This document shows, piece after piece, positions 1,880 through 47,404 of a DNA stretch of 64,000 bases. A program made the position numbers and the translations under genes. Source of the stretch: Gammaproteobacteria bacterium (lineage in GTDB: Bacteria > Pseudomonadota > Gammaproteobacteria > UBA4575); the NCBI GenBank assembly GCA_045105615.1, contig JBGCDS010000010.1, forward strand, positions 24,452-88,451, read 5' to 3'. Below the pieces are notes generated by a model. The model was not told the DNA's origin and did not search any database. It worked only from the letters and a program-made list of their open reading frames with translations. Numbering within the stretch: position 1 is the stretch's first letter; each line of letters begins with the position of its first letter.

Positions 1880-1983
1880 AAATTAATACATATGACATGC
1901 GCAGCTCTTAGAAAATAAACACGGATAATAATCTTTGAACTACGCATGTTTATGTAACCTATTATTAATAATAACTTGGCTGA

Positions 1984-2268: not shown

Positions 2269-2520
2269 ATTTCGTACTCCAGGATGATTAGTATTATCAC
2301 GAGCAATTGATATTTTTACTTGCTCTCACACCCTAAGACGAAATTGAGATTAACTTGATTGCATGAATTTAAAAATACTCTGGCTACCGGCTCTATGAGG
2401 AGGTCACACACTTATTAACGTGCCGCTTAAGTGATAGGCCCTGGCTTGAGTACCTCAGTTTTAAGTAGCGGAGTCAAGGCCACCTAAAATTACGGAGCTT
2501 TTACTTTGTAAATTTATAAA

Positions 2521-2685
2521 TTACTTGGTTAACAACAATTTATTAGATTTCGTCAATTGTAACAAATAGGTTTCACCTGCATGGCTTATCCATGCATAAC
2601 GCTTACCTTTTAACAGGCTTGTTAGAGACACCGCAGAATTTTGTTGGCCTTGTTGATTAGAGTTAAGTGAAAGATGATTTGTCAT
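2521..2685 (-). CDS. Small hypothetical ORF (54 aa, MTNHLSLNSNQQGQQNSAVSL...). Internal Met of the 77-aa track ORF, preceded by a strong RBS (AGGAGCG, 5 nt spacer)
   Basis: Reverse complement of 2686-2697 gives AGGAGCGCTAAC-ATG. No recognisable domain. Confidence 0.2.
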   Translation of the reverse strand: MTNHLSLNSNQQGQQNSAVSLTSLLKGKRYAWISHAGETYLLQLTKSNKLLLTK

Positions 2686-2796
2686 GTTAGCGCTCCTGAG
2701 TGAGTCTTTAATTACCAATATGTAAATAATAATCGTTCTCATTCGTAATTGCAAACTCTATCCTCGTTATTATCTCTCAGCTGAATTTGCTAAAAA

Positions 2797-3678: not shown

Positions 3679-3755
3679 AAGTAAAACTCAATATAATATT
3701 AGTAATCGTATTATAACCATCAACCTAGTCATAACGAATAAGTTGATAGATAAGC

Positions 3756-5540: not shown

Positions 5541-5578
5541 TGTATTTTTACTTATTTATTAAACCTTAGCTAAAATCC

Positions 5579-5953
5579 CTATTCGCTTTCTTTTTTCTCT
5601 TCTTCATCCATTGATGCGCGAACTTGATCCATATCTAGTCCTTTTACCTTCTCAATAATATCTTCCAGCTGCGCGGGTGCTAATGCCCCTGCTTGGTTGA
5701 ATAATAAGATTTGTTCCCTGAATATCATCAACGTTGGTATAGATCTGATTTGGCATGCCTGGCCCAGTTCTGTTTGCTCTTCAGTATTCACCTTTGCAAA
5801 GGTAACATCGGTATGATTTTCAGACGCCATTTCAAATGTTGGCGCAAAAGATTTACACGGTCCACACCATTCTGCCCAGAAATCAATAATGACAATATTA
5901 TTTCCTTGGATTGTATCGTTAAAATTATCAGAATTAAGCTCCAGCGTGGCCAT
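5579..5953 (-). CDS. Thioredoxin
   Basis: 124 aa. WCGPC active site; acidic C-terminal tail. Confidence 0.85.
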   Translation of the reverse strand: MATLELNSDNFNDTIQGNNIVIIDFWAEWCGPCKSFAPTFEMASENHTDVTFAKVNTEEQTELGQACQIRSIPTLMIFREQILLFNQAGALAPAQLEDIIEKVKGLDMDQVRASMDEEEKKESE

Positions 5954-5961
5954 AGTGTCTC

Positions 5962-6564
5962 CTAGTTATTAAAATTTCCTTGCGAATAATAGTATTCAAT
6001 ATCCATCAATACATCTCGTAGATTTTCTAAACGCACCAAGGGATTATCAATCTCAAGAATACGTTGTTTTTGTTCTAATTCAAACGGCAAATATTCCGTC
6101 AGCCTAGCCGCAACCCAATGTGCACTGTGCAAATGTTGACTTTGCAAGCTGAACGGCTCACCCAATTCTTTTATAATCACAGATAGCAAATGCCCCCACT
6201 CCTCAAAGATTTCGGGAAGCGCTTCATCGTCATCTTGTTGCAGATAATCCACCTCCGCAATAATCAGCTGATTAGCCTGTACTTGTGTGGATTTTATCAC
6301 TATTCTTGATTGACCTTGAACGGTCACCCCTAACAAACCATCAGGCAAGGTTTCCCAGTCAATAATACGGCAAGAAGTTCCCACATTCTGATGTTTTGCC
6401 GCATTTCCCACTTCACGTCCATCTTTAATCAAGCAGATAATAAATTCGCTTTGGTTACGTGAACACTCTTTCACCATATCCAAATAACGTGATTCAAAAA
6501 TTCTCAGTGGTAACACGCCGCCTGGGAAAATCACTGAATTTAACGGAAACAAAGGAAGATTCAT
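5962..6564 (-). CDS. Stand-alone Lon N-terminal (LON substrate-binding) domain protein
   Basis: 200 aa. N-terminus MNLPLFPLNSVIFPGGVLPLRIFESRYLDMV matches the Lon N domain. Confidence 0.7.
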   Translation of the reverse strand: MNLPLFPLNSVIFPGGVLPLRIFESRYLDMVKECSRNQSEFIICLIKDGREVGNAAKHQNVGTSCRIIDWETLPDGLLGVTVQGQSRIVIKSTQVQANQLIIAEVDYLQQDDDEALPEIFEEWGHLLSVIIKELGEPFSLQSQHLHSAHWVAARLTEYLPFELEQKQRILEIDNPLVRLENLRDVLMDIEYYYSQGNFNN

Positions 6565-6566
6565 AT

Positions 6567-7817
6567 TTAACTTACTGTATAGAAAATTCTATCCAACATA
6601 AAATGAAAAAAATACGCTTGAGTAGCTGCCGAGCTCTCCAATAGATTTGATTTTGATACACGCAACACTTGAGACTTCACTAGCGCCTCACAACGATAGT
6701 TAGAAAATTGCTTAGACAAAATATTATCAGACAACCACTGTTTTGCATTTATAGTAAAATGCTGACCTTCAGTCACTAACAGAGCCTTCCCTTCTATGAG
6801 ACACAGATACTCATCCAACAATTGCTCATTAAAAATTATATCACCGCTATTAACGGACGAAATTTCTAAGCAATTAGCTAACTCATGAAGTACTTCCAAA
6901 TTACTATCTTCAAATATCTCAAATTTTTTAAGTTGATCTGTATCTAAGTCTTCATAGTTATTTTCATTAGTACTAATTTGATCTGCCACAATTAAAATCT
7001 CAGTCTCAAATTCTGCTGCCGAATTAAATCTATTTTCAGGTTGTTTAGTTAGCGCTTTTACAAGCAATGCTTTCAACGATTCTGGGTGGATGTCTTCTAT
7101 TGCCTCTGGCTCACTGCCAATAATTTTATACAACACGGCGTGTGCATCATCACCAGAGAAAGGCAAATCGCCGACAATCATTTCATATAATAATACGGCT
7201 ACTGAAAATAGATCACTCAATTCATTTGCTAACGTACCATCAATTAATTCTGGCGCCATGTAGGATGGTGTTCCCATTAGCCCCGAATCATCAGCCTCAC
7301 CCGAATTTAATATAGAAATTCCAAAATCTACTACTTTCACCTGCTCATTTTGAGTAATCATTATATTGCTTGGCTTAATATCACGATGAATAATATTTTT
7401 TGTATGCGCGTAATCTAACGCATGACAAATCTGCGCAGCAATATTCAATGCTGTGCTAATAGGCAAAGATTTCTTCCGCTTTAAAAGCGCTAACAAACTC
7501 TCGCCTTGGATATATTCCATGACAATATAGCCTTCATAATCACCAATTCCTGCATCGTATACTGAGACAATATTTTGATGTTGCAATCGTCCAATTGCCT
7601 GCGCTTCAGCATAGAACAAATCATTAGCTACTAAGTCTTCATCTCCACTGGGATCAAACAATTGAATGACTTTTATTGCGACCTTGCGGTCAAGGAATGG
7701 ATCATAAGAACAAAACAAAGTGCGCGTCGGCTGAGTACGCACAGCTTCTTCTAAAGAAAATTTTCCGATGTTTCCAGTAGAAGCTAAACTTCTCCTACGT
7801 TGCCGTCTTTCAAGCAA
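6567..7817 (-). CDS. Hanks-type Ser/Thr protein kinase with C-terminal cyclic-nucleotide-binding-like domain
   Basis: 416 aa. VAIK, HRDIKPSN, DFG, APE motifs. C-terminal ~120 aa resemble a CRP/cNMP-binding beta-barrel (GDIIFNEQ...CLIEGKALLV). Confidence 0.75.
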   Translation of the reverse strand: MLERRQRRRSLASTGNIGKFSLEEAVRTQPTRTLFCSYDPFLDRKVAIKVIQLFDPSGDEDLVANDLFYAEAQAIGRLQHQNIVSVYDAGIGDYEGYIVMEYIQGESLLALLKRKKSLPISTALNIAAQICHALDYAHTKNIIHRDIKPSNIMITQNEQVKVVDFGISILNSGEADDSGLMGTPSYMAPELIDGTLANELSDLFSVAVLLYEMIVGDLPFSGDDAHAVLYKIIGSEPEAIEDIHPESLKALLVKALTKQPENRFNSAAEFETEILIVADQISTNENNYEDLDTDQLKKFEIFEDSNLEVLHELANCLEISSVNSGDIIFNEQLLDEYLCLIEGKALLVTEGQHFTINAKQWLSDNILSKQFSNYRCEALVKSQVLRVSKSNLLESSAATQAYFFHFMLDRIFYTVS

Positions 7818-7838
7818 TGAATTTCCTTCACTTATACA

Positions 7839-9203
7839 TTAATGATTCAAACGCTGGTTGAGACCGGTAATAAGTTTGTCGCAAACCCCACCAAAACCAC
7901 CATTACTCAAGATAAGCACATTATCCTGAGGCTGTAAGATTGACAGCAAATATTCGACCAAACGTTCTATATCAGTGAATATATTGCTATGTAGACCCGA
8001 TAATACCCTCTCTATCGACCAACTCAACTCACCGCTATCATAAATACATAGTTCAGTTGCAGGAGATAAAGCTTCTTTCAAACGATGCGCATGAATGCCC
8101 ATCTGCATGGTATTTGAACGAGGCTCAAATACTACAATCATTCTTTGCTTATCATACTGCTGCTTAAAGGCTTCTAAAGTACATTTGATTTCAGTTGGAT
8201 GATGTGCAAAATCATCGTAAATAGTAATTCCATCGTACACGCCTTTATTTTCTAGACGTCTTTTCACTCCAGTAAAATTAGAAAGCGCTTTTAACGAATG
8301 CTCTACACTTACACCTGCATGTCTTGCAGCACTTATTGCAGCCATTGCATTCAAGGCATTATGTTCGCCTAATAAAGATAAGCGCCCCTCGTATCTTTTA
8401 CCTCCCTGTGTTGAAATTTTATAAGGGTTTTTTTTATCGTGCACATTTGCTAGATGCCAATAATTAGATGCTTTCACTCCGAATGATTCATTTTCAGACC
8501 AGAGCCCCTGGTCTAACACCTGTTGAATATTCTCATCATCACCATTGAAAATTAGCTTACCTAACTGCGGAAGAATTTTTATCACATGATGGAATTGTTT
8601 CTGCACATCTTGAAGATCACGAAAAATATCTGCATGATCAAATTCAATATTATTAATGATCAAGGTGCGCGGCTGATAGTGAACGAACTTAGAGCGCTTA
8701 TCAAAAAAGGCTGTGTCATATTCATCAGCCTCAATAACAAAAAATGGTTTATCTCCAATACGCGCAGAGACACCAAAATCATTTGGCACGCCTCCTATTA
8801 AAAAACCAGGCTGCATCCCTGCATGTTCCAGGATCCATGCAAGCATGCTCGCGGTAGTTGTTTTGCCATGCGTACCTGACACTGCAAGCACCCAGCGGCT
8901 TTGCAACAAATGCTCACTCAACCATTGAGGCCCCGATATCATTGGCCATTGCTCACTCAGCATTCGCTCTATCACAGAGTGCCCTCGAGTCATTACATTC
9001 CCTACAACGACCTGATCAGGACGTATATCTAATTGCGATGCATCAAAGCCTTCAATTAAATCAATACCTGCCGCTTCAAGCTGTGTACTCATAGGTGGAT
9101 AGACGCCCTCATCTGAGCCAGTAACTTGATAACCCATTTGTTTAGCCAGCAGCGCCAAGCCACCCATAAATGTTCCACATACCCCGAGGAAGTGAATATG
9201 CAT
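7839..9203 (-). CDS. mpl: UDP-N-acetylmuramate:L-alanyl-gamma-D-glutamyl-meso-diaminopimelate ligase
   Basis: 454 aa. Mur ligase family, N-terminus MHIHFLGVCGTFMGGLA; GTHGKTT P-loop. Confidence 0.85.
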   Translation of the reverse strand: MHIHFLGVCGTFMGGLALLAKQMGYQVTGSDEGVYPPMSTQLEAAGIDLIEGFDASQLDIRPDQVVVGNVMTRGHSVIERMLSEQWPMISGPQWLSEHLLQSRWVLAVSGTHGKTTTASMLAWILEHAGMQPGFLIGGVPNDFGVSARIGDKPFFVIEADEYDTAFFDKRSKFVHYQPRTLIINNIEFDHADIFRDLQDVQKQFHHVIKILPQLGKLIFNGDDENIQQVLDQGLWSENESFGVKASNYWHLANVHDKKNPYKISTQGGKRYEGRLSLLGEHNALNAMAAISAARHAGVSVEHSLKALSNFTGVKRRLENKGVYDGITIYDDFAHHPTEIKCTLEAFKQQYDKQRMIVVFEPRSNTMQMGIHAHRLKEALSPATELCIYDSGELSWSIERVLSGLHSNIFTDIERLVEYLLSILQPQDNVLILSNGGFGGVCDKLITGLNQRLNH

Positions 9204-9204
9204 T

Positions 9205-9747
9205 TTATATCCTTAGCATTTCTGAAATTGAAAGAAGCATCATGGCATTTAACAATCTATAGCCCAAACTAATGGATATGCCTGATGATAGATTTAGATC
9301 AGCAGCATGTCTCACAATATGTCCATAGGCTATTATTATCCATATAAACATTAAGAAAAATAAAAGCCTGCCAACACTTGAAATATCTTTGACATTTTGA
9401 TCAACGATAAATACATATGAACATATCGTATGCAAAAAACCAATAACCACTCCGACACCTAAAAATGCATTGAACGTTTGATTGATACGCTCTTTTTTAC
9501 CTCGTAATATCAGCCGTGTGAAAATATATAATAGAATTAAATCCAATACGCCATGAATAGCGCCTTTTGTAAATCCATAAATAAGCAACGCATTCAATAT
9601 GGACAATCCCAAATACAGGTATATTAATATTATTCGGAACGCCTTAGATGAGGGACAATCTTGCGGCTTAGCACTTAGCAATGCCAGACGAATATAATAC
9701 TCAAGAATATATTTCATTCGCTTAGCGTATAAATTTATATATGCCAC
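9205..9747 (-). CDS. Hypothetical polytopic inner-membrane protein
   Basis: 180 aa, 4-5 hydrophobic helices. Overlaps the upstream lpxA-like gene by 26 bp. Confidence 0.45.
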   Translation of the reverse strand: MAYINLYAKRMKYILEYYIRLALLSAKPQDCPSSKAFRIILIYLYLGLSILNALLIYGFTKGAIHGVLDLILLYIFTRLILRGKKERINQTFNAFLGVGVVIGFLHTICSYVFIVDQNVKDISSVGRLLFFLMFIWIIIAYGHIVRHAADLNLSSGISISLGYRLLNAMMLLSISEMLRI

Positions 9748-10480
9748 GCTTTGATGGCGCCGCCAACCAGTCTTCTAACAGCACCAATTCCTTTGTGGTT
9801 GCTGGATAAGGCTCACAATCACCTGTGCGAATTAGGCGAATTCTTTTTTCTAGGGCCTTATATTTATCGCCCGTAATCCCCGCTCTGCGCAAACCAATTG
9901 TATTCAACTTGTAATGCGCTACCGGATCTCGCCCCAACAGACAAAATGGCAATACATCTTTTGCAACAGGCGCAAATCCGCTTACCATGGCATAGGCGCC
10001 AATACGACAAAACTGATGTATCCCTACATTACCGCCAATGATGGCTTTATCTCCTACTTCCACATGCCCACTAAGTGCTGCGTAAGCAGTAAGAATCACC
10101 TCATTACTTAACAAACAATTGTGTCCCACATGTGTATTACACATTAGATAACAACCGTTACCTATTTTAGTCAGCTCTTGATTATTATTAGCGCGATGCA
10201 CTGAGCAAAACTCTCGAAAAATATTATCATTACCAATTTCCAACCAAGTTTCTTCGCCGTGGTAGGAAATATCTTGCGGCGCACCACCAAGCACAACATG
10301 ATCAGCGACGGTATTTCGCTCACCCATGTTGACGTAAGAATGAATTATGCTATGTGCACCAATGGTAGTTCCTGAACCGATGCGCACATTAGCATGCACG
10401 ATTGAATATGGTCCGACTTCTACATCTTCTTCTAGATTTGCTGAGCTAGAGACAATTGCTGTTGTATGAATATTTGCCAT
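9722..10480 (-). CDS. LpxA-family acyl-ACP--UDP-GlcNAc O-acyltransferase paralog (left-handed beta-helix hexapeptide repeats)
   Basis: 252 aa. Hexapeptide repeats and C-terminal helical domain align with LpxA. Not in the canonical lpxD-fabZ-lpxA-lpxB context. Confidence 0.7.
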   Translation of the reverse strand: MANIHTTAIVSSSANLEEDVEVGPYSIVHANVRIGSGTTIGAHSIIHSYVNMGERNTVADHVVLGGAPQDISYHGEETWLEIGNDNIFREFCSVHRANNNQELTKIGNGCYLMCNTHVGHNCLLSNEVILTAYAALSGHVEVGDKAIIGGNVGIHQFCRIGAYAMVSGFAPVAKDVLPFCLLGRDPVAHYKLNTIGLRRAGITGDKYKALEKRIRLIRTGDCEPYPATTKELVLLEDWLAAPSKRGIYKFIR

Positions 10481-10519
10481 GCCGAATAATATCTGATTCG
10501 GCTGAAGGGGTGAAGGTGA

Positions 10520-12914
<2,395 letters not shown>

Positions 12915-12958
12915 TCAACGCAAGCGCCAATAAATATTAGTTGGATAACTTATAGTGA

Positions 12959-13738
12959 CTACGCAGTGACACTCTGCTTGGTTGCTCGCAAACCAAATAA
13001 CTGTACTTGCTCTTTGTATACTGAGATTGATTGTTTGGTGATTAAATTATGATTCTCATCTAGTAAATCACCGTTTAAAAATGCTGCTAGTCGTTGCGCA
13101 TGCTCAGCCATTATATTAAACGATTTAAGTTCATCTTCGGGACCAGGCAATTGCAATATCATGGTTAAACCGCGTGTTTCAAATGCATCCATTTCCTGCA
13201 TATCAAACACACCTGGTTTAAGCATATTAGCAACACAATAAACACTAAGCTTTTTACTCAGCCTCTCAACATTGTAATGAAATATGCCCATCTCACCATA
13301 TTCAAGATCTAGGTCTGACATCATACGAACTATCATTGGTCCGGTGAAGACTTCACCTGCTCGCGCAACTACATGAAAAATCACCAGCATTTCTTTGCTG
13401 GTTTTATCGCTGGCAGCCTGTTCGACTGATGTCGTTCTACGAGTGGCCTCCATCCGTGCACGCTGCGCCTCTTGCACTCTTTTAGAAATTGTTTCTTCGC
13501 GCAGCTCTTTGCTAACATCTTGAAACTCTGAGCGCAGATCATCTGGCAGACCCAATGTCTCGTCCACTTGAGACAATGAAGGTATATCGTCTAGCTCATC
13601 AGTCAAATCAATATCGTTTTCACTGAGCTCATCGATTTGTCTATCTTTAGAATTAGCGCGATACCATACATAAATGGCCGCAATTATCACTGCCGCAAGG
13701 ATAGCCAGCGCGATACGTAACTCAAAAGCAGATACCAT
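12959..13738 (-). CDS. zipA: Cell division protein ZipA
   Basis: 259 aa. N-terminal TM, charged linker, C-terminal FtsZ-binding domain; synteny smc-zipA-ligA. Confidence 0.8.
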   Translation of the reverse strand: MVSAFELRIALAILAAVIIAAIYVWYRANSKDRQIDELSENDIDLTDELDDIPSLSQVDETLGLPDDLRSEFQDVSKELREETISKRVQEAQRARMEATRRTTSVEQAASDKTSKEMLVIFHVVARAGEVFTGPMIVRMMSDLDLEYGEMGIFHYNVERLSKKLSVYCVANMLKPGVFDMQEMDAFETRGLTMILQLPGPEDELKSFNIMAEHAQRLAAFLNGDLLDENHNLITKQSISVYKEQVQLFGLRATKQSVTA

Positions 13739-13778
13739 ATTGCCTACCTATTTATATATTTTGATCGAAACAGCATTA

Positions 13779-16700
13779 TCACGCTGTCGCAAGTTTAACT
13801 GCTTCTTCTATATCTACTGAGACCAATCTAGACACACCAGGTTCATTCATTGTTACACCCAACATATGGTCTGCGTAACTCATGGTACTCTTATTATGAG
13901 TAATAAATACAAACTGCACATGCTTACTCATGTCTTTAATTAGATCACAGAATCGTCCGACGTTGGCATCGTCCAAAGGTGCATCGACCTCATCGAGTAG
14001 ACAGAATGGCGCAGGGTTTAATTCAAATATCGCTAGCACAAGCGCTACTGCGGTTAATGCTTTTTCACCACCTGAGAGTAGCTGGATTGAAGACACGCGC
14101 TTACCCGGTGGTCTTGCCATAATCGTGACACCTGCAGTGAGCAGATCATCGCCTGTCATTTCTAGATATGCTTTACCGCCAGGGAACAAGCGCGGATACA
14201 TTCTTTGCATATGAGAATTGACTAAATCAAAGGTCTCTTTAAAGCGCTCTTTAGTTTCTTTATCGATCTTACGGATAGCAGTCTCTAACGTTTCTAACGC
14301 TTTATTCAAATCTTCATGCTGCGAATCAAGATATTCTTTGCGTTCGCTTTGTTCTTTAAACTCATCAATGGCAGCTAGGTTTATAGAACCAAGGCGTTTA
14401 ATCTTTTCTTCAATCTCTGCAACCAGTTTTTCCCAACGATCTAATGCTGCATCTTCTGCTAACTCATTTGTCAGTTCTTCCATCGTCCAATCAAACTGAT
14501 CTAACTGCTCTTTAATTGTTTGTACACGAACTTTTAGTTCCTGCCACTTCATACGCTGCAGATTTAAAGCTTCACGTTGCTCTCCAATCTTATTATCGGC
14601 ACTGACACGCTGCTCATCTTTTTCTCGAATCGTTGTGTCTACTTTTTCCAAACTGGCTCTTGACTCAGCAAGTCTCTGTTCGACTAACAGCCTGCTTTCC
14701 AATTTATTTTTTAACGTTTCGGAGAATTCTTGAATAGGTTGATCACTTTCTGCAATTGCTTCAGCTAAATGCTCAAGACGAAGATTGCCTTCCGACTGCT
14801 CCATCTGCAGACGACTAAAAATTGATTTAGAAGTAGCTGAACGCGTACGAAGGGCTTCAATTTCCAACTGTAGTGAATGCTTTCGCTCTTGTAATTGAGT
14901 TGCCTGCTCTTTACGTTCATTAAACTCAAAAACAACTTCCTCTTTACGTCCAAGCAGTTGATCTTTACGCACTTGCAAAGAATTTAAATTAACCTGCGCG
15001 ACCTCATAGCTTTTTGTCGCCGCTTGCTTCTGACTAGAATAATCATGCAGCTGAGAGGTTACCTCTTCAACAGAATTACGTAACTGCGTATCACGATGCT
15101 GCCAATGCTTGATTGCAGCTTGGCTCTTGGACAACTCTGACTGAATCTCTGCATGCTGCTGGAATGCCAAGTTATGCGCCTGCTGAGCATCTTCGCGTTG
15201 TTGCTCTTGATCAGACAACTGCTCTAGTGCATTTTGATGCTGCTCAGAAATAACCGCGATCACTTCATTAATCTGACCCAATTGCTCTGTCAGATCTACA
15301 ATATCTGCTTTTCGACTTAATACACCATCATTTCCATTTTCAGTATTAGAGTAACGCACCCATGTGGCGCTCAACCAAAGTCCATCAGCAGTAATCACTG
15401 ACTCGCCATCTTGAAGTTGTTTGCGAATAACTAATGCTTGATTTAGATTGTCAGCTACGAGAATTTTTTGTAATTCTGCTTTTATACCCAAACTAGATTT
15501 TATCTTACTAGCAAGCGTATTTGATGATGCCTGTATATCTTGAACAGTATTTGCTTCAAAAAACATCACATGTCCTTCTTGCAATTCATCTAATTGCAAC
15601 GCAATTTGATCTAGATCCGAGGTGCAAATCGCTTCAAGGTAACCATCTAATACTGTTTCGACTGCACGCTCCCAACCTGCTTCCACTTCAACCTGGTCAG
15701 CAAGTCTTGGCGCACGATCCAAATGTTTATCGCTAATCCATTGCTGCAGTTGTTGCTGTTCGCCTTTTAAAGCAGCATCCTGCAGTGCTTGCAAGGTGGA
15801 TAATTCGCTTTTGATCTGTTGATTTTCAGCTTTACTATCCTCAAGCTGCATAGACAGATCTTCGATTCTTCCGCGTGACTGAGTAATATTTTCAATGGAT
15901 TGCTCGAGCATACGCTTACAATCACTCACAGCTTCCGCGCGCGCTTCTAAACGTTTTTGAATGGAGTCGAGATCGAACTCATGCTCACTTTGAAGCAACT
16001 CGTTGTGTTCTGATTGATATCGTTGCTGTCGCTCTTGCAAGCGATTCATTTCTTGACCTAAAAATTCGATACGCTGCGAATGCGCCTGTACTTGATGACT
16101 TGGCTCGTTCGCTTCATGCATGAGTTCTTCCCATGCTTCACGCCATAATATCTCTGCGGTTTCAGCGCTAGATACTGCTTCGCCGACTTCAACATATTGC
16201 TCATTAAGCGACTCAAGCTCAGCCTGCATAGTTTGCATTTGCTGCTCAAATTCCTGCTGCGCATCATCCTGTTTCGCCAACTCTTCAACTAACGAGTCTA
16301 AATTTGATTTGGTTTTTTCCAAGTCACTTTCATGGCGTTGCTTAGTTTCGCTAGCATGTTGAATAGACTGTTCTAAGCGAGAAATATCTGCACCTACTTG
16401 ATAGTATTCGCCCTGTACTTTATTCATTGAGTCATTAGCTGAACTATGCTCTTGGCGCAACTGCTCCAACTCAGCTTCTAGTGTGCGCAAGTGAGCAATC
16501 GTTTCTTCTAGCTTTGTTTCTTTATGTTCAACGTTCTTATGTTGCTCATCCAGCTCTGTATGCATAGATTGCATACGCAACAATAATAATTCTGCATTAG
16601 AACGTCGCTCTTCAGACTTTAATTGCTTATATTTTTCTGCGGCAGAGGCTTGGCGCTTCAACTTTGCAATTTGCTTAGCTACTTCTTCGATCAAATCATT

Positions 16701-40613: not shown

Positions 40614-40698
40614 GCCGGGGTGGCGGAATTGGTAGACGCGCCGGATTCAAAATCCGGTTTCTTCGGAAGTGCGAGTTCGATTCTCGCCCTCGGCACCA
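40614..40698 (+). tRNA. tRNA-Leu (anticodon CAA), class II with long variable arm, CCA encoded
   Basis: Cloverleaf readable: acceptor GCCGGGG/CCTCGGC, anticodon stem CCGGA/TCCGG, loop TTCAAAA, long variable arm. Confidence 0.85.
40644..40698 (+). repeat. attL: 55-bp 3' segment of tRNA-Leu, duplicated exactly at 47128-47182
   Basis: Exact 55-bp direct repeat read by eye in both places. Confidence 0.75.
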
Positions 40699-40799
40699 TT
40701 TAAAAACAGATAGTTACGCAAACACGATCGATCGAACAATTTTTTAAATGTGTTTACGGGGGAGTTATAGGGGATTGCGCATCGTTTACTCATAAAATC

Positions 40800-41720
40800 C
40801 TATCGTGCAGGATTATTAAAATGCTTCACTAGCGCCACTCCATTATGATTCTCAATTAACTTATATGCAGACGTATTCATTATCGTATGCATGAAGCAAT
40901 GGTGCACAGTTAGCACTAAATCCTGCAATTCTGAGTTTGCTTCTAAATCCTCAATTTTCAATCCCAATTCTTTACACTCGTCAATATGTATATGTCTATC
41001 ATGTTGCCGGTTGGTGTCGATTGCAGACAATTTATCTGTTATGTGCCTCGCCTTTTCTTCGGCGTCGGTTTCTCCCTCAAACATACATGTGACCAATTGC
41101 TTCTGCACAAAATCGTTTGCCAGCTTAACTGTATCCTCAACCGTTTTAAAAAATCCAATAGCATATTTGTTAAGTATTGGATGCCATATAAGCGCTCTAG
41201 CCTGATCAGTTTTCATTTCATCGTATGCTTGCTGAAATTCATCAAGTATGGAATATGCTGAAGTACCATTAATTTGCGGATCAATTGGCCCCAAGTTTGA
41301 TTGCTTACCCATCACTATAGATTTACAAGAGCATGACATGATCGTTCCTGCTGACATAGAAATCTGCGGCACAATTGCCCTGATATTATTGCCAAACATT
41401 CTGTGCAAATAGTCAATCAACGATTGAGATGCTGCTAGAGAGCCGCCCGGAGTATGGAGAATCAGATCCAAACCCAAACTTCTATCCATCTGATGCACAG
41501 CCATCATTAACCCATTTTTATCTTCATCTGTTATGGACATTTCTTGAGAATATGGCTTACTCAACCAACCCGAGTAATAACAGATGACGTTTCTATTTGT
41601 AAATCCAAAAAGTTCTTGCAAATATTTTCTTCTAATAGTGTCCGATACAGAAATTATTGCATTCTCATGCTGTTTAATTAATTGATTATGTTCAGTTAAG
41701 ATCTCATTCCAATTTGGCAT
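40800..41720 (-). CDS. SDH-family (serine dehydrogenase proteinase, ClpP/crotonase-fold, S49-like) serine protease, stand-alone cargo of the island
   Basis: 306 aa. Similarity to Clp-fold SDH/SppA-like proteases (LHTPGGS..., GPIDPQ segments). Confidence 0.6.
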   Translation of the reverse strand: MPNWNEILTEHNQLIKQHENAIISVSDTIRRKYLQELFGFTNRNVICYYSGWLSKPYSQEMSITDEDKNGLMMAVHQMDRSLGLDLILHTPGGSLAASQSLIDYLHRMFGNNIRAIVPQISMSAGTIMSCSCKSIVMGKQSNLGPIDPQINGTSAYSILDEFQQAYDEMKTDQARALIWHPILNKYAIGFFKTVEDTVKLANDFVQKQLVTCMFEGETDAEEKARHITDKLSAIDTNRQHDRHIHIDECKELGLKIEDLEANSELQDLVLTVHHCFMHTIMNTSAYKLIENHNGVALVKHFNNPAR

Positions 41721-42359
41721 TTTATTACCCTATTTTTACTTTATATCGACTCGCCTGATAGATTTGTTGCATTACGTGCTATATTTAAAATCTCAATAAA
41801 GTACTGTTACTAAAAAGAATCGACATACTGATTACATTCAATAATCTAATATAGCCATATAAAAATCATGAAAAGTGATACTAATACAACCATTATTGAA
41901 AAACACAAATATATTGACTCAACAATCGATCAGTATATTTCTGAGCATGGTCCAGAATTCTTTGGCTCACGCAGCATCTCGGTCAGCATTGATGGATCTG
42001 GAGTGCTAAAAAATCTTATTAACAATCTCGAGCAACCCGAAAGAGAGTCATTTGTATCATCAAATGCTTTTTTACTGGACTGATTTAGTTTCAGACTAGA
42101 GATTGAGCCATTCCAGCGGCTTACTGAATTTTTCAAAGTTGGCGCAAGCCTAAGACCATACCGGAAGTATATTTCTCAATCATTCTGCTTGAATTATTAA
42201 CATCCACTCCCCTTAAACTCCCCCATTTTCAGCAGCATAAAAGGTCTAACGCGCTATTGCTAGCCTATAAAGCATGAAGTCACAAGATTATATATCCTGT
42301 GTTGCCATATATTGGGCTTTGTTGTAGGTTATATCTAAGATTAATTTCAGGCCAAATAC

Positions 42360-43421
42360 ATGGCTCACATCGAAGCCCGTACAGATAAAAAAGGCAAAAC
42401 TCGCTACCGCGTTCAGATAAGACTAAAAGGACACCCAACTCAGTCAGCAACTTTCGAACGCAAAACTGATGCTAAGAAATGGGCACAAGACACCGAATCA
42501 GCGATTCGAGATGGCCGTCATTTTAAAACTGTTGAGTCAAAACGACATACTGTCGGCGAAATGTTAGATCGATACATCAAGACCGTACTTCCCAAAAAAG
42601 GTAAAAATCAATCTAACCAGAAACCTCAACTCGAATGGTGGAAGGAGAAAATTGGGGGCTATCTACTTGCAGACGCAACACCATCTCTAATTGCTGAACA
42701 CCGCGATATGCTTCAAGAAGACAAAACGCACATGGGGACCAAGCGATCCCCTTCCACCGCCAACAGATACCTTGCTGCGCTCTCTCACTGCTTCACAGTA
42801 GCTGTTAATGAGTGGGAATGGCTAGATGACTCCCCCATGCGAAAAGTGCGCAAATGCAAAGAACCACGAGGCCGGGTGAGATTCTTATCTGATGATGAAA
42901 GAAAACGATTACTCCTTGCATGCCAAGAAGTTGAGAATGGAAGTCTGTACCCTATTGTTGTGCTGGCCCTCTCTACGGGTGCTAGACAATCAGAAATACT
43001 CACATTGAAATGGAAACAGGTGAATTTAAAGCGCGGCCAAATTACATTATTTGACACAAAGAATGACGAAATTCGCTCAATCCCACTAGTTGGCCACGCT
43101 CACGAGATAATTCAACGGCTATCGCAAATTCGAAGAATTGATTCTGATCTACTTTTCCCAGGGAAAAGAAATAAAAAATCACCAACCACTATACGAGCTG
43201 CCTGGGAAAAAGCGCTTGAAATTGCTGAGATTGAAGATTTCCGCTTTCATGACCTCAGACATAGTGCAGCATCCTATCTCGCCATGAGCGGCGGCACACT
43301 CGCTGAGATCGCAGACATATTAGGACACAAGACACTGCAAATGGTGAAGAGGTATGCGCACCTTTCAGATAGTCATAACAGCAAGGTTGTATCAAAAATG
43401 AATGATCAAATTTTTAGCTGA
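42360..43421 (+). CDS. Tyrosine-type site-specific recombinase/integrase (phage integrase family, N-terminal arm-binding domain)
   Basis: 353 aa. Catalytic R (TGARQSE), HxxR (HDLRHS), H (LGH), Y (RYAHL). Confidence 0.9.
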   Translation: MAHIEARTDKKGKTRYRVQIRLKGHPTQSATFERKTDAKKWAQDTESAIRDGRHFKTVESKRHTVGEMLDRYIKTVLPKKGKNQSNQKPQLEWWKEKIGGYLLADATPSLIAEHRDMLQEDKTHMGTKRSPSTANRYLAALSHCFTVAVNEWEWLDDSPMRKVRKCKEPRGRVRFLSDDERKRLLLACQEVENGSLYPIVVLALSTGARQSEILTLKWKQVNLKRGQITLFDTKNDEIRSIPLVGHAHEIIQRLSQIRRIDSDLLFPGKRNKKSPTTIRAAWEKALEIAEIEDFRFHDLRHSAASYLAMSGGTLAEIADILGHKTLQMVKRYAHLSDSHNSKVVSKMNDQIFS

Positions 43422-43423
43422 AA

Positions 43424-43939
43424 ATGGCTTCCAATAAATTCACAGGGAAGCTCAATAAGAGACTAATAGATAGAAGTCGCGAATTAACCGTAGCTCTCCT
43501 CAGAGATGACATAAATAAGCAGAATCAAATCTCCCAGGAGATTAACGAAGAGATCAATGAAAAATTGAGCTTACTTTGCGAACACTATGGACTCTTTGAC
43601 ATAGAACCACAGGAAAAACTGTTATATGAACTCTCACTCTCGCTTGCGAGAGACTTCGTGCCTGGATTCAAGCTAGAAAACAAAGTAGGTGCACCCACAA
43701 AATGGTCCCTAGGAGTGCTACAGGACCTTTATAACACTGTAAATACTCTTAGGTCCTCTAGATCACCTAGAGGTAGCGTCAATTGGGCTTGTATACAGCT
43801 CGCAAGACAAGAGCAATGGAAATCAATTATAAAACAAGAGTCTACATCTCCCGAAAAGGTACTTGAAAGCTACTACTACAAAGCAAAAAATAGCCAAGCA
43901 GCACTCGCGAAGTCATTTAAAAATAAAGTTCTGAAATAA
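43424..43939 (+). CDS. Hypothetical protein, translationally coupled to the integrase
   Basis: 171 aa, no recognised domain; start 3 bp after the int stop. Confidence 0.4.
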   Translation: MASNKFTGKLNKRLIDRSRELTVALLRDDINKQNQISQEINEEINEKLSLLCEHYGLFDIEPQEKLLYELSLSLARDFVPGFKLENKVGAPTKWSLGVLQDLYNTVNTLRSSRSPRGSVNWACIQLARQEQWKSIIKQESTSPEKVLESYYYKAKNSQAALAKSFKNKVLK

Positions 43940-44053
43940 TACAAAATCCAATTTTTTAAGGATTACTCTTTTACGCGTCATTGTTCCCAACTGCTCAAGC
44001 AAGTAGGTGCTTGGCAACAGGAAGCAACAATAAATACGCATAAAGGTAATCAT

Positions 44054-44266
44054 ATGAGCTCATCAAATTTATTCACTGTACGTCAATTCTCAGAAAAACA
44101 TCGCGCATTCTCAGAGGGTGGCATTAGATGGCAAATCTTTAATTCAGACAAAAATGGTCTTGGTAAGTCTGGTGCAATTCTTCGCATTGGAAGAAAAATT
44201 TTGATCAATGAAGATAAGTATCTGGACTGGCTATATGACTCTAATCAACTCAAGTTAATTGACTAG
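44054..44266 (+). CDS. Small HTH DNA-binding protein (excisionase/AlpA-like)
   Basis: 70 aa. LFTVRQFSEKH.....IRWQI pattern typical of MerR/Xis-type HTH. Confidence 0.45.
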   Translation: MSSSNLFTVRQFSEKHRAFSEGGIRWQIFNSDKNGLGKSGAILRIGRKILINEDKYLDWLYDSNQLKLID

Positions 44267-44278
44267 AAAGCTAAGATA

Positions 44279-44770
44279 ATGCCATCAAAAGACAGACTAA
44301 AAGTCAAAGGCAGAAAAATTAGCGGGGGTTTTGTAGCTTTCCCACATGATTGCTTGAATCACGTAAATTTCATTATATTGTCCCCTTATGCAGTAAAACT
44401 CCTAGTGGACTTATACAGTCAATATAGAGGCAAAAATAATGGCGACCTATGTATGACTTGGTCAATGATGAAAAACCGTGGGTGGAGATCTGAAGCAACT
44501 TTAAACAAGGCTAGACATGAATTAATACATTACGGGTGGATCACTCTCACTCGGCAAGGTGGTCGAAATGCAGCAAGCTTGTATGCAGTGACATGGCAAT
44601 CTATCGATGAGTGTAAAGGCAAACTTGATGCTAGGGCCACTAACGTTGCATCAGGCGCCTGGAAAGAACCAAAAATGCCATTTCTAAAAACTAAAAAATC
44701 AAAACGAGTACTACGCGATCCGTATCAACCTACTACGCCTAAAGTAGTAAAAATAGGAGTTATACCTTGA
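44279..44770 (+). CDS. Putative winged-helix replication-initiator-like protein
   Basis: 163 aa. LSPYAVKLLVDLYSQ....GD...SMMKNRGWRSEATLNKARHELIHYGWI resembles the Rep/wHTH N-terminal domains of mobile elements. Confidence 0.35.
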   Translation: MPSKDRLKVKGRKISGGFVAFPHDCLNHVNFIILSPYAVKLLVDLYSQYRGKNNGDLCMTWSMMKNRGWRSEATLNKARHELIHYGWITLTRQGGRNAASLYAVTWQSIDECKGKLDARATNVASGAWKEPKMPFLKTKKSKRVLRDPYQPTTPKVVKIGVIP

Positions 44771-44908
44771 TACGATTTTTAATTACATCATCTGATGAAT
44801 TAATGTAGCCAATTTTCAGCAATTCGCTACTACACATGCTGCATACCTTTATATAAATATACCATGTAGTGCAGCATTTATTTTCATTGCAATAGCAAGG
44901 AATTAACA

Positions 44909-45319
44909 ATGCCATTTAAAAAAGGTCAATCAGGAAATCCAAAAGGTCGCAAACCCGGCTTAAGCAACCAGGCCAAGTTTCGAGGACTAATCGAAGCGCA
45001 CATTCCCTCTCTCGTCGATACCGTTGTTAAAAAAGCATTAGCAGGCGATATGACTGCTATGAAAATTTGCATTGACCGTGTATGTCCACCACTCAAAGCA
45101 AGAGATGAATTAATCAAGATCAATAAAATGGGCTCTCAACAATTACTAGATCAAGCAAACACTGTTTTGCTCGAGATGCACTCTGGGAAAATTAGCCCAA
45201 CTGAAGCTGGAAGTATTATGCGTGTTCTCGAATCTAAGACTAAAATTTTGGAAATCGTTGACCTAACGGCGCGAATTGAAGAATTAGAAAATTTTGCGAA
45301 TAATGGAAATAAGCCATGA
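44909..45319 (+). CDS. DUF5681-like phage/mobile-element protein (N-terminal GNPKGRKPG motif)
   Basis: 136 aa. KGQSGNPKGRKPG motif. Confidence 0.45.
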   Translation: MPFKKGQSGNPKGRKPGLSNQAKFRGLIEAHIPSLVDTVVKKALAGDMTAMKICIDRVCPPLKARDELIKINKMGSQQLLDQANTVLLEMHSGKISPTEAGSIMRVLESKTKILEIVDLTARIEELENFANNGNKP

Positions 45320-45582
45320 GTATCCATAGAAGAATAAATAAACTTGAGGAGAAAATTTACCCTCCCAAGAAAATTAAACCTCCCCGTATTATCATGATTG
45401 GTATTGATGAAACGCAAGAGCAAGCATATAAGCGTCAAGTAACAGATAAAAATATCGACCGCAGTGATTTTGGCCAGCTTATTTGTATACGATTCACAAA
45501 TTCTAAAAATCCATTTCTAGGTGATGACGTAAAGCCTAAGGAGCTTGGAAGTAACCTCACACACCCTACTTGGAAATATTGA
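45316..45582 (+). CDS. Hypothetical protein (ATGA overlap with the upstream gene)
   Basis: 88 aa, basic N-terminus. Coupling to the upstream ORF. Confidence 0.3.
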   Translation: MSIHRRINKLEEKIYPPKKIKPPRIIMIGIDETQEQAYKRQVTDKNIDRSDFGQLICIRFTNSKNPFLGDDVKPKELGSNLTHPTWKY

Positions 45583-45737
45583 TGATCTTGAACTAAACAA
45601 GCCCCATCAGATAAACTCATGAACACCTTAACGGTATTAGTCAATGACTGCTTTCGACCCAAAGAGGACATGTGTTACTAATGTTTCTATTGAACTTATG
45701 ATTATAATGATAGTAGCGAACAACTAAAAAATGTGAA

Positions 45738-45992
45738 ATGAAGAGTAAAAGCCAAAAATTAGTCTGGTCTTACCTGCTTGCGTCTTTATTTGTGGCCAGT
45801 GCATATACCTATATGGTAGTTGATACGTTTTTAAGAACAGGAGAATTTTGTATAAGCATGCCTGGTCGAGGCTCAACTTCTCAGGGCTGTTTATCTGAAT
45901 TTGCTCCTATTTTTATTGGTATAACTATTTTCTGGTTGGGTTGTGCAGTTCATTTTTTATTATTAGGCCTTAACAAAAGAGGTTTATGGTAA
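45738..45992 (+). CDS. Small hypothetical membrane protein (2 TM)
   Basis: 84 aa with two hydrophobic helices. Confidence 0.35.
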   Translation: MKSKSQKLVWSYLLASLFVASAYTYMVVDTFLRTGEFCISMPGRGSTSQGCLSEFAPIFIGITIFWLGCAVHFLLLGLNKRGLW

Positions 45993-46091
45993 GAAAATAA
46001 AAAGGTCAGACTTGTTGATATATAGGCGACATACAAAGACATTACACTTGAAACATAAAAGTTTAATTTTATTGTTAGCGAATGACCGCTA

Positions 46092-46595
46092 TTGAGCCGT
46101 AAAGTGACAAATAAGACACCCATGAAAACAACCAATGTAATCACATTAATAATATTTTTATTGACGGGGTGCGGTTTATCGAACTCAGAAATTGGTATGT
46201 GTTATCCACAGGGAAATCACTTAGATTTATTTACAGAGGAATTAGATAAGCGAGGCATTACCTATACTAACGATGCTCAAAATCCTGAGTGTGTAAATAT
46301 GATGAACATATCGGATGAAGATGTCCAAGAAATACAAGACTATGTTTTTGGAATTTCTCCACCAGCTAAATATAGTCGTGCATTTAAAATTTCAGGCTTT
46401 CTTGAGTCAACGAATGATCTTAGCGATCTAGAAAACATTGAATATAAGAATGATAATTTGCGTGCAATAAATATACTTGAGGAAAATGATATCAAAGTGA
46501 AAACTATGGTCTATTTTGGTACAGAGCATATTGTTTGGAATAAGAAGGACGATGTGCGAGTAAGAGAGTTGCTAAACTTAGAGCCTCCCAAATGA
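46092..46595 (+). CDS. Hypothetical lipoprotein (lipobox LLTGC). True start probably the internal ATG (MKTTNVITLIIFLLTGCG)
   Basis: 167 aa. Signal peptide plus lipobox Cys. Confidence 0.5.
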   Translation: MSRKVTNKTPMKTTNVITLIIFLLTGCGLSNSEIGMCYPQGNHLDLFTEELDKRGITYTNDAQNPECVNMMNISDEDVQEIQDYVFGISPPAKYSRAFKISGFLESTNDLSDLENIEYKNDNLRAINILEENDIKVKTMVYFGTEHIVWNKKDDVRVRELLNLEPPK

Positions 46596-46601
46596 CCGCT
46601 A

Positions 46602-46958
46602 TTGAGCCGAAAGAAGACTACTTTATCCATGGATAAAGATGAATTAATTGCAGAACGAGAATTGATCTTCGTAGCACCTGACGGCTCAGAGACTTTCTCT
46701 AGCGTGCAGTTTGGTACGCCATATTTCACTGATGAGCATGGATGTTGTTGTGATTGGGAAATTCCAGGTATTGAGAAGCGTCGTTTTGCTGCTGGTGTAG
46801 ATGGAATACAGGCAATTTTATTATCTATGTTAATGGTAGCGTCACACCTCGATAATAAAAGTGATAAAGGTTGGAAGTTTTTGTGGCCTGATGATCGGTC
46901 GCAATCATCTGTCAGTGAATTATTTTCAGCTGAGCAGTTCAAAAAGTTAACTGAATGA
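46602..46958 (+). CDS. Hypothetical protein, acidic, CCC motif
   Basis: 118 aa. Shares a 19-nt leader with the preceding gene. Confidence 0.4.
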   Translation: MSRKKTTLSMDKDELIAERELIFVAPDGSETFSSVQFGTPYFTDEHGCCCDWEIPGIEKRRFAAGVDGIQAILLSMLMVASHLDNKSDKGWKFLWPDDRSQSSVSELFSAEQFKKLTE

Positions 46959-47127
46959 CTGCTTTTGCGTCGGTAGCATTATCAAATTAAGTTAAGGGGA
47001 CTTACGGGGGAAATTTCAACAACCTCTGACAATAATTGACTACTATCCCCAATCAAACAATTAGGTTAACTTCTTGATTTTGATATTGGAGTTTATGGCG
47101 GTTGATGGTGACATGTTGCTCTTGGAT

Positions 47128-47182
47128 GATTCAAAATCCGGTTTCTTCGGAAGTGCGAGTTCGATTCTCGCCCTCGGCACCA
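47128..47182 (+). repeat. attR: 55-bp direct repeat of the tRNA-Leu 3' end
   Basis: Exact copy of 40644-40698. Confidence 0.75.
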
Positions 47183-47327
47183 GGTCACGTCTATCATTCT
47201 CAAATAGACAACTAATCAGTTACTTGATCCGAATCACATGCATCAATCGCTTGCTCAAGCCATATATGCAAAACCAACTTCATTTCCAACCAACCGCCCA
47301 GATATAATACTCACGAAGATAACATTT

Positions 47328-47404
47328 GCCCCGGTAGCTCAGCTGGATAGAGCGTCCCCCTCCTAAGGGGAAGGCCGTGCGTTCGAATCGCGCTCGGGGC
47401 ACCA
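47328..47404 (+). tRNA. tRNA-Arg (anticodon CCT), CCA encoded
   Basis: Acceptor GCCCCGG/TCGGGGC, anticodon stem TCCCC/GGGGA, loop CTCCTAA. Confidence 0.8.

Follow-up and report, generated by a model that had tools for sequence, protein, structure and literature searches.

A leucine tRNA gene on contig JBGCDS010000010.1 (assembly GCA_045105615.1), from a gammaproteobacterium of the UBA4575 lineage, is followed by a short run of genes that ends in a second copy of the tRNA 3' end, and the locus raises the question of what kind of element has inserted there and how it might spread. We analyzed a 64,000-nt stretch around it (contig positions 24,452 to 88,451, forward strand), referred to as the window, whose coordinates are used throughout. 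An original prediction, made from the sequence without database searches, had described the block as an intact, satellite-like integrative island with non-structural cargo. We are highly confident that the element is an integrative, mobile island and that it belongs to a widespread family. That it is a minimal phage satellite is, in our judgment, somewhat more probable than not; among the readings considered, a stripped-down satellite is the most likely because the island has its own integrase, origin-binding and packaging-type proteins, no structural genes, and tRNA end repeats. Its excision, replication, helper dependence, packaging, and cargo function are inferred from these features. The results further suggest a function for DUF5681 proteins and define an unnamed island family.

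The island, its insertion site, and its relatives

The integration target is the intact tRNA-Leu(CAA) gene called by ARAGORN at 40614 to 40698 (forward strand). Its 3' end, the attL core (40644 to 40698), recurs as the attR core at 47128 to 47182; a renewed repeat search recovered this 55-nt direct repeat as a single pair with 100% identity and a spacing of 6,484 nt, far above chance, in agreement with the exact attachment repeats predicted earlier. The left copy belongs to the intact tRNA gene, and the right copy is a fragment that is not called by ARAGORN. The insert is thus flanked by a duplication of the tRNA 3' end, the arrangement that marks a tRNA-integrated tyrosine-recombinase island. 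The 6,429 bp between the repeats contain 11 open reading frames (ORFs), all of which are intact and tightly packed, with coupled starts. No capsid, tail, lysis, large terminase, or relaxase family was matched by any of these ORFs in Pfam, PHROGs, and NCBIfam, which fits the prediction that the element is not a prophage. Profile scans found no conjugation domain or coupling protein among them, and no primase or helicase domain was detected in Pfam, PHROGs, and further profile scans.

The GC content of the island is 0.384, compared with 0.411 for the remainder of the window. However, the description of the block as AT rich is marginal, because the island lies barely under the lowest of the other 6.4-kb windows (range, 0.388 to 0.428) and only its ends are low: the backbone is at the host level (0.401), and both cargo ends have values of 0.364 to 0.367. 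A scan for promoters and terminators gave counts at chance level, and the repeat search found no internal att-like remnant in the island. The island sequence was recovered in three Logan runs, including a 6,486-nt contig from run SRR29999185 that is 100% identical to positions 40672 to 47157; all of these contigs break at tRNAs or repeats and are therefore uninformative on excision. No empty site was seen in the related genomes examined. The island is real and, in every testable respect, intact.

The tyrosine integrase (353 aa; 42360 to 43421, forward strand) matches PF00589 (1.9e-32) over profile positions 2 to 171 of 172 and phrog_1 (9.5e-77), and its catalytic set is complete (R209, K234, H297, R300, H323, and Y332), so that the predicted intactness of the enzyme holds. 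The integrases of two relatives, L098 and L430, are 56 to 58% identical to it. A pattern scan identified a paired motif, GGGGA-N6-GGGGA, at three positions: 40759 to 40774 on the forward strand, 61 nt inside attL; 42208 to 42223 on the reverse strand, about 140 nt upstream of the integrase gene; and 46996 to 47011 on the forward strand, 117 nt before attR. These are the only occurrences in the 64 kb, where 0.04 would be expected, and all are internal to the island. Similar pairs of G runs lie near both ends of the related islands L089 and L090. From their placement, we infer that the motif copies are candidate arm-type sites for the integrase or a directionality factor.

Two small genes follow the integrase gene. 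The first, orf171 (171 aa; 43424 to 43939, forward strand), starts 2 nt after it and has no family match in Pfam, PHROG, or profile scans; in most relatives, this int-adjacent slot is filled by a variable ORF. By analogy with the iolg/icg gene of PICMIs, which are minimalist chromosomal islands inducible by phages (PMC10803314), orf171 may be an excision cofactor. The second, orf70 (70 aa; 44054 to 44266, forward strand), has an excisionase/MerR-like sequence pattern and occupies a slot that is held by AlpA in 32 relatives. The original prediction had called it Xis/AlpA-like, a label that reflects position and sequence pattern and is not supported by profile comparison. In Pfam, neither AlpA (PF05930) nor HTH_17 (PF12728) was matched up to an E value of 10, and an alignment by hhalign against the 32 AlpA proteins of the family was not significant (hhalign probability, 0.3). 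A homologue search returned seven proteins, none with Pfam domains. In a Thiodictyon element, a homologue of orf70 lies beside a genuine HTH_17 gene, and because of this co-occurrence orf70 is not simply an AlpA orthologue.

The tRNA-Leu site is a genuine hot spot. The tRNA-Arg(CCT) gene called by ARAGORN at 47328 to 47404 (forward strand), in the chromosomal flank outside the island, is conserved beside the site in a sister genome (L089; ENA ERZ28496113 ctg626), which carries a different, 9.9-kb island (positions 6009 to 15958) in the same tRNA-Leu(CAA) gene. The order there, with the same flanking genes as in the window, is secDF, yajC, tgt, queA, tRNA-Leu(CAA), the island, tRNA-Arg(CCT), and genes for a MarR regulator and an OmpA-family protein. 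Between the two genomes, these flanks are 72 to 76% identical, and window positions 47160 to 47194 are 97% identical to the flank that follows attR in L089. The L089 island has an end repeat of 23 nt and encodes a P4-type integrase, AlpA, a winged helix-turn-helix (wHTH) protein 68% identical to that of the window, SoFic (PADLOC, 2.5e-91), a Band_7 protein, and a cassette array. In a third related metagenome-assembled genome (L134), an integrase-bearing island lies beside queA and tRNA-Leu. The tandem-tRNA hot spot proposed earlier is thus seen directly in related genomes, with the same site differently occupied.

A scan with the wHTH protein found 134 family loci in species-representative genomes of Gamma- and Betaproteobacteria, including Rhodanobacter, Luteibacter, Dyella, Nitrosospira, Marinobacter, Alcanivorax, Endozoicomonas, and Microbulbifer. 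We analyzed 84 loci, namely, the window, the best 80 of the 134 genome loci, and, in addition, three previously found contigs. In 69 of the 84 loci, an integrase gene lies about 2.8 kb upstream of the wHTH gene on the same strand, a Pfam-type AlpA gene lies between the two in 32 of the 84, and a tRNA or tmRNA gene immediately precedes the integrase gene in most. Where end repeats were detected, the islands are 4.3 to 10.8 kb long. The shared backbone is codirectional and consists of the tRNA or tmRNA, the integrase, the int-adjacent ORF, a small HTH gene, and the wHTH gene, followed by variable cargo; this cargo comprises type I restriction-modification (R-M) systems (13 loci), type IIG R-M systems (4 loci), second integrases, and many orphans, and PADLOC identified SoFic (2.5e-91), Dsr1, and type I and type IIG R-M in it. 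A 5.2-kb relative (L130) has a smaller gene set in the same order (int, orf70-like, wHTH, DUF5681).

These features bear on whether the island could be the remnant of a decayed prophage. Such an origin would account for an integrase at a tRNA gene, for the occurrence of homologues of the island protease in temperate phages, and for the phage relatives of the DUF5681 and wHTH proteins. However, structural, lysis, and large-terminase genes are absent even as fragments, the end repeats are exact, and a compact architecture of 4 to 11 kb is conserved over 134 genome loci in many genera; we consider decay from a prophage highly improbable.

Nine IMG/VR contigs encode the wHTH protein. Two of them, L346 (UViG_2823115391_000001) and L347 (UViG_2671180080_000002), are about 10 kb long, come from isolate genomes, and continue from the int-to-wHTH backbone into structural genes: Pfam identified an HK97 capsid, S78 prohead protease, portal, and small (TerS) and large (TerL) terminase genes in L346 and, among the ORFs tested, capsid and portal genes in L347. 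No ORF of tail size is present in either. Others among the nine are true phage contigs, such as L351 with a P22-type portal. Separately, a 16-kb GenBank "complete phage genome," PP003913.1 (L432, "Pseudomonas phage vB_Pae_U1"; positions 1 to 16187), encodes an integrase, cox, a wHTH homologue named "replication protein O," a primase, and Rhs but lacks structural genes; this record appears to be an island or satellite rather than a phage.

Candidate origin and packaging genes

How the excised island might be replicated is suggested by the wHTH protein, the signature of the family (163 aa; 44279 to 44770, forward strand; AlphaFold2 pLDDT, 86.6). The AlphaFold2 model of this protein is a winged helix predicted with good confidence. 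The protein has at least 507 homologues and no Pfam model, and three motifs are conserved among the homologues: NNGD and RQGG, both invariant, and IDECKGKLD. Its sequence links are weak (phrog_186, "DnaD-like helicase loader," 7.4e-6; RepA in PDB entry 4pta, E value of 0.22), and one homologue is annotated as "replication protein O" in a GenBank record. Weak homologues are also encoded on Ralstonia and Cupriavidus megaplasmids. Assignment to a specific Rep type by structure was tried and not retained: Foldseek matched generic wHTH folds only (MarR/ArsR, DnaD-N, and RepA_N), all with E values above 0.03.

The DNA at and just past the 3' end of the wHTH gene carries iteron arrays in the family, with three to five copies spaced by 22, 43 to 53, and 44 nt. 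In a scan of 450 nt beginning 330 nt into the wHTH gene, in which at least three phased copies of a 14-mer were scored, 42 of 82 family loci were positive, compared with 2 of 73 control regions. Arrays are present in L090, L094, L104, L110, L117, L165, L173, and about 35 other loci, and the iteron sequence varies between islands. The window has no 14-mer iterons and keeps a weaker 8-mer version, TACTACRC, at 44709, 44731, and 44828, which fits the family spacing of 22/53/44 with a degenerate site in third place; three of the seven matches in the window fall in this region, and 2.1 would be expected in 64 kb. The candidate origin (44709 to 44880), found by motif scan and alignment, consists of these sites and the AT-rich sequence ATACCTTTATATAAATATACC, and it aligns with the iteron region of L096, the closest genome relative, with which the AT-rich ATACCTTTATA stretch is shared. 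An iteron-type Rep/ori arrangement is thus present in the family arrays and, at the sequence level, in the window, where a three-site version stands in register beside an AT-rich stretch. The Rep-like role proposed earlier is therefore plausible: to judge from its sequence and that of the adjoining repeats, the wHTH protein is probably an iteron-binding replication initiator resembling lambda O, DnaD-N, or RepA_N proteins. Alternatively, the repeats may form an operator array for a regulator.

The gene that follows encodes a 136-aa DUF5681 protein (44909 to 45319, forward strand; PF18932, 4e-12), as had been predicted, and its stop is overlapped by 4 nt by the coupled orf88 (88 aa; 45316 to 45582, forward strand); related islands also have a small ORF after DUF5681. 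In viral contigs, this family points to packaging. At 78 IMG/VR loci, DUF5681 ORFs of 86 to 149 aa are almost always followed immediately by an ORF of 385 to 510 aa; 7 of 10 such neighbors tested with Pfam are large terminases, and a TerL-like ORF lies directly downstream in 60 of 72 evaluable viral contigs (IMG/VR loci L011 to L088 and L353 to L429). Since DUF5681 so frequently adjoins a TerL-like ORF, it marks the position of a small terminase, and the island protein is probably a TerS-like packaging specificity protein. The AlphaFold2 model (pLDDT, 81) shows a basic, disordered tail along with a bundle of three helices and, at the C terminus, a long helix, a shape that would suit TerS. A structurally recognizable TerS was also sought, and neither a sequence profile search of PDB nor Foldseek searches against PDB and BFVD gave a named terminase. 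A literature search on DUF5681 returned nothing useful.

Within the island family, DUF5681 occurs in 5 of 84 loci, each time immediately downstream of the wHTH gene. The island protein has 28 full-length relatives, which are found in small islands with an integrase and AlpA, where DUF5681 is followed by a short coupled ORF and then by defense cargo, such as a split Dsr1 at a tmRNA site in L178 and a type I R-M system in L176 (Methylobacter luteus). In the tmRNA-integrated island of L178/L179 (positions 11982 to 15874), the Dsr1-like gene is split into a SIR2 part of 397 aa and a C-terminal part of 894 aa.

The same genes could be read differently. The island might be an integrative mobilizable "hitcher" that, once excised, replicates transiently from the wHTH gene and iterons and is transferred by a conjugative element in the same cell, through an unrecognized oriT and not in phage particles, with DUF5681 as a DNA-binding accessory protein and not a terminase subunit. 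A wHTH protein with iterons suits a plasmid-like Rep/ori as well as a phage O/ori, the packaging-type gene is absent from most family members, weak wHTH homologues lie on the megaplasmids mentioned above, and one DUF5681 relative adjoins a giant polyvalent protein with ddrB-ParB and LPD domains. Polyvalent proteins of this type occur in conjugative elements as well as phages. However, no relaxase, coupling protein, or known oriT-associated domain was found in the island ORFs by profile scans, although an oriT itself cannot be excluded from sequence alone; in addition, the positional link between DUF5681 and TerL in viral contigs is strong, the backbone is common to elements resembling cf-PICIs, the phage-inducible chromosomal islands that form capsids, and to phage contigs, and the gene order matches that of PICMIs and of PICIs (chromosomal islands inducible by phages). 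Dependence on conjugation is the main rival to a phage satellite, and we regard it as unlikely.

Cargo genes and the inter-cassette element

Accessory genes occupy both ends of the island. At the left end, a stand-alone SDH-type serine protease of the ClpP fold (306 aa; 40800 to 41720, reverse strand; PF01972, 2.5e-22; phrog_11747, 2e-93) carries the motifs HTPGG (residues 89 to 93) and SMSAGT (121 to 126), as expected from the Clp-fold protease that had been predicted there. Relatives with about 40% identity are scattered among temperate phages as accessory genes: a Shewanella Mu-like phage carries one between its late regulator and its lysis genes, Gordonia phage BeeGee carries one after the tail genes, and others are present in five Porphyromonas prophages. 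A single-sequence scan of IMG/VR found no relatives, and a literature search on SDH-type proteases in defense gave nothing useful. The protease is accompanied by orf71, a 71-aa orphan (41868 to 42083, forward strand) that is called as a gene in Logan contigs and for which no homologues were found in Pfam, PHROG, and homologue searches. This module sits between attL and the integrase gene; in most relatives, the integrase gene abuts the tRNA. Motif copies 1 and 2 are inverted relative to each other and bracket the protease/orf71 module, and inverted repeats of 20 nt that are 85% complementary (40758 to 40777 and 42205 to 42224) surround it as well. It is possible that this module was inserted secondarily or that it can invert.

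At the right end lie three small cassettes, all on the forward strand. Cassette 1 (45738 to 45992) encodes an 84-aa protein with two hydrophobic segments and no homologues in Pfam, PHROG, and homologue searches; cassette 2 (46122 to 46595, with the start taken from Logan contig L001) encodes a predicted 157-aa lipoprotein with the lipobox LLTGC; and cassette 3 (46629 to 46958) encodes a 109-aa DUF6968 protein (PF22302, 5.4e-9). The prediction of three small envelope proteins is thus supported for two, which have a lipobox or transmembrane segments, but not for the DUF6968 protein, which has neither a signal peptide nor a transmembrane segment. The protease and the three cassettes are accessory cargo, for which a role in phage exclusion or competition is likely. 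As for anti-phage cargo, which had also been proposed, relatives carry proven defense systems (SoFic, Dsr1, and type I and IIG R-M) in the cargo position, whereas PADLOC gave no match for 10 of the 11 island ORFs (the DUF6968 ORF was left out), and an anti-phage function is thus not supported for the cargo of the island itself.

Each right-end cargo gene is bounded by a conserved element of 20 to 30 nt (AATGWCYGCTNTYG...; AATGACCGCTNTTGNGCC and variants) that is absent from the remainder of the window. Copy 1 (45644 to 45672), recognized by sequence comparison, is the variant AATGACTGCTTTCGACCCAAAGAGGACAT; the repeat search identified copy 2 (46082 to 46100), ATGACCGCTATTGAGCCG, copy 3 (46592 to 46610), which contains the TGA stop of cassette 2, and copy 4 (46955 to 46975), which is degenerate and closes the array; all four are on the forward strand. 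The element recurs in three other island-like loci. In L089, five copies (at 11646, 14306, 14947, 15381, and 15782) lie between unrelated ORFs; three copies (2300, 2763, and 3384) are present on a TARA scaffold (L278), where small membrane protein and lipoprotein genes lie beside an IS30-type transposase; and five or more (6435, 9344, 10778, 12692, and 13157) are present in L430. L430 (ENA ERZ21788738 ctg49099l) is the closest backbone relative of the window, with an integrase 58% identical and an orf70 protein 71% identical, and its array of about 9 kb contains about 14 small ORFs, including OmpA-like beta-barrel and DMP19 proteins, split by a hairpin form of the element. This form has a perfect 11-bp stem and an 8-nt loop. 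No cassette protein common to two arrays was found.

Two identities of the element were considered and set aside. As a conserved hairpin or attC site, it gave no consensus structure across 16 copies, and the named hairpin was 55% paired, equal to shuffled sequences. As a phage promoter or widespread repeat, it gave mostly single matches at chance level in viral and metagenome scans, the TARA scaffold being the exception. It is possible that the element is a cassette boundary. Because its short, unrelated ORFs are each flanked by a conserved element, and this element recurs with other ORFs in different islands, the array resembles an integron or CALIN; however, the element is only 20 to 30 nt long, has no conserved hairpin and no R''/R' boxes, is not accompanied by IntI, and lies in arrays inside tRNA-integrated islands.

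The end modules raise the possibility of a composite, in which a backbone satellite (int to orf88) has acquired the protease/orf71 block, bounded by inverted copies of GGGGAGTTxTAGGGGA, and a right-end array that exchanges units via the AATGACCGCT... element. The 20-nt inverted repeats around the protease block, the lower GC content of both end modules (0.364 to 0.367, compared with 0.401 for the backbone), and the presence of the element between unrelated ORFs in L089, L278, and L430 agree with such a history, but there is no internal att-like remnant, the hairpin of L430 is not conserved across copies of the element, and no recombinase is consistently tied to the arrays (the integrase of L089 is of the P4 type, and that of the window is of a different type). 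We therefore treat a composite origin as possible, though well short of established; it is compatible with a satellite and does not exclude one.

Proposed life cycle and comparison with known satellites

The island entered the chromosome through a crossover, made by a tyrosine recombinase, in the final 55 nt of tRNA-Leu(CAA), and its own copy of these 55 nt rebuilds the tRNA. If the island is a minimal phage satellite, its life cycle may be pictured as follows. A helper phage would trigger the small regulators, and the integrase, together with orf171 and/or orf70 for directionality and with the GGGGA-N6-GGGGA arm sites, would excise the element at the 55-bp core. The wHTH protein would then bind the TACTACRC iterons at and beyond the 3' end of its gene and, in the manner of lambda O at ori-lambda, open the AT-rich stretch beside them, and the excised circle would be copied by replication proteins of the host or the helper. 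The DUF5681 protein and the coupled 88-aa ORF would act as a small terminase and direct the large terminase of the helper to island concatemers; these would fill helper capsids, and the integrase would reintegrate the island in a new host.

Several observations weigh against this reading. Excision, replication, and packaging were not seen, the Logan contigs being uninformative owing to their breaks at the repeats, and no helper phage was identified. The island has no AlpA or HTH_17 match for orf70 and encodes no primase or helicase; the wHTH fold is generic, with MarR/ArsR regulators scoring as well as Rep/DnaD domains; and the iterons of the window are short, with one expected site degenerate. 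The TerS role of DUF5681 is drawn from gene position, the AlphaFold2 model having no match to a solved TerS or a named viral protein, and because DUF5681 is present in only 5 of 84 loci, hijacking of packaging is not family-wide. Finally, in L180 (JGI 3300006957, positions 1 to 9420), the neighbor of a DUF5681 relative is an ORF exceeding 3,000 aa that has ddrB-ParB, LPD1, and LPD38 domains; the DUF5681 family thus extends beyond small islands and terminase loci.

Some of these points would also fit an island that integrated recently, lost its modules for spread or let them decay, and is kept for cargo that benefits the host. The weaker iterons of the window relative to those of its relatives (8-mers, one site degenerate), the lack of a primase, a helicase, and a recognizable AlpA, and the protease module wedged between attL and int, unlike in relatives whose integrase gene abuts the tRNA, are in keeping with stranding of this kind. 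On the other hand, the ORFs are all intact and lie close together, their starts being coupled, the catalytic set of the integrase is complete, the 55-nt repeats are exact, the end motif is preserved near both ends, and the 5.2-kb L130 keeps the same order with an even smaller gene set; stranding or domestication thus appears less likely still than dependence on conjugation.

Should the satellite interpretation be correct, many small tRNA and tmRNA islands are satellites that have probably been missed by marker sets relying on profiles of primase, AlpA, and TerS proteins already known, and the diversity of satellites in environmental Proteobacteria is consequently underestimated. Counted in protein clusters, the affected set would number at least 507, and it would take in 134 species-level genomes, among them those of Rhodanobacter, Nitrosospira, Marinobacter, Alcanivorax, and Endozoicomonas. 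DUF5681 would gain a testable role as a small terminase or packaging specificity protein, and the shared inter-cassette element would hint at how cargo moves between islands. Because the cargo slot of relatives holds SoFic, Dsr1, and R-M systems, the unassigned cargo of the island is a reasonable place to seek new defense genes, the candidates being the stand-alone SDH/Clp-fold protease, the lipoprotein, the protein with two transmembrane segments, and the DUF6968 protein. If the interpretation is wrong, the element is an ordinary small genomic island. A more far-reaching proposal, which we put forward only tentatively and hold to be doubtful, is that the island stands for a widespread class of minimal satellites, present in Gamma- and Betaproteobacteria and not described before, in which a lambda-O-like winged-helix initiator with phased iterons replaces the primase-helicase and a subset carries a DUF5681 TerS; in one marine lineage, the distal cargo would be an integron-like array whose unrelated small genes pass between islands by way of the conserved 20- to 30-nt element, and the protease and envelope proteins would represent new anti-phage or exclusion functions.

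Among known systems, PICMIs of Vibrionaceae offer a close parallel. They have about six genes, in the order int, a gene overlapping or contiguous with int that is needed for excision, alpA, and a replication gene, and they are packaged as concatemers in full-size capsids; PICMI115, with six genes, is about one-eighth of the helper genome, and eight copies (about 49 kb) fill a capsid (PMC10803314). The island shares with them its small size, codirectional order, int-abutting ORF, small regulator, and replication gene, as well as the lack of capsid-remodeling genes, and by analogy it would be packaged in the form of concatemers into helper capsids of full size. However, PICMIs are defined by a DUF3987/DUF5906 primase, AlpA (PF05930 or PF12728), and insertion in fis with an element-encoded Fis N terminus (PMC10803314). 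The island has no DUF3987/DUF5906 domain, no Pfam AlpA up to an E value of 10, and no fis site, and it instead has the wHTH gene with iterons, a tRNA-Leu target, and, unlike PICMIs, a gene in the TerS position.

With PICIs, including the SaPIs and those that encode their own TerS, the island shares an integrase, small regulators, a probable iteron-origin Rep, and distal accessory or defense genes, and its DUF5681 gene is a candidate for the small terminase by which such satellites redirect helper packaging; however, it is about half the usual size and lacks a primase-helicase Rep, any profile match to Stl/AlpA, and the cpm, ppi, and rpp genes. By SatelliteFinder-style criteria for PICIs, structural and lysis genes are absent as required, whereas a primase or replicase is lacking. 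With respect to markers of packaging hijack (terS, ppi, and rpp), the island has DUF5681, which in 60 of 72 viral contigs stands in the place of TerS and has no match to a known TerS model or structure; the candidate thus differs from PICI TerS proteins in coming from an uncharacterized family. Marker sets of the SatelliteFinder type would be expected to recognize little beyond the integrase. No Pfam or PHROG match to the P4 markers (alpha primase-helicase, sid, psu, delta, and epsilon) was found in the island ORFs.

The likeness to cf-PICIs lies in L346 and L347, in which the int-to-wHTH backbone is combined with genes for an HK97 capsid, a prohead protease, a portal, TerS, and TerL and no ORF is of tail size; unlike these, the island itself has no capsid, portal, or TerL, and BLASTP found no cf-PICI capsid, portal, protease, or TerL genes in the 84 genome loci. 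The replication module resembles lambda O and ori-lambda in its small N-terminal winged helix and in the phased repeats that lie in and after the 3' part of the gene and are followed by an AT-rich stretch, but the island has no partner helicase loader, the sequence links are weak, and the fold is a generic wHTH. The satellite-like character claimed for the element is thus supported by its architecture and by the occurrence of its backbone in two cf-PICI-like elements; the island fails the formal definitions of P4, PICI, PICMI, and cf-PICI satellites, although it follows the same logic as these satellites and has part of its backbone in common with them.

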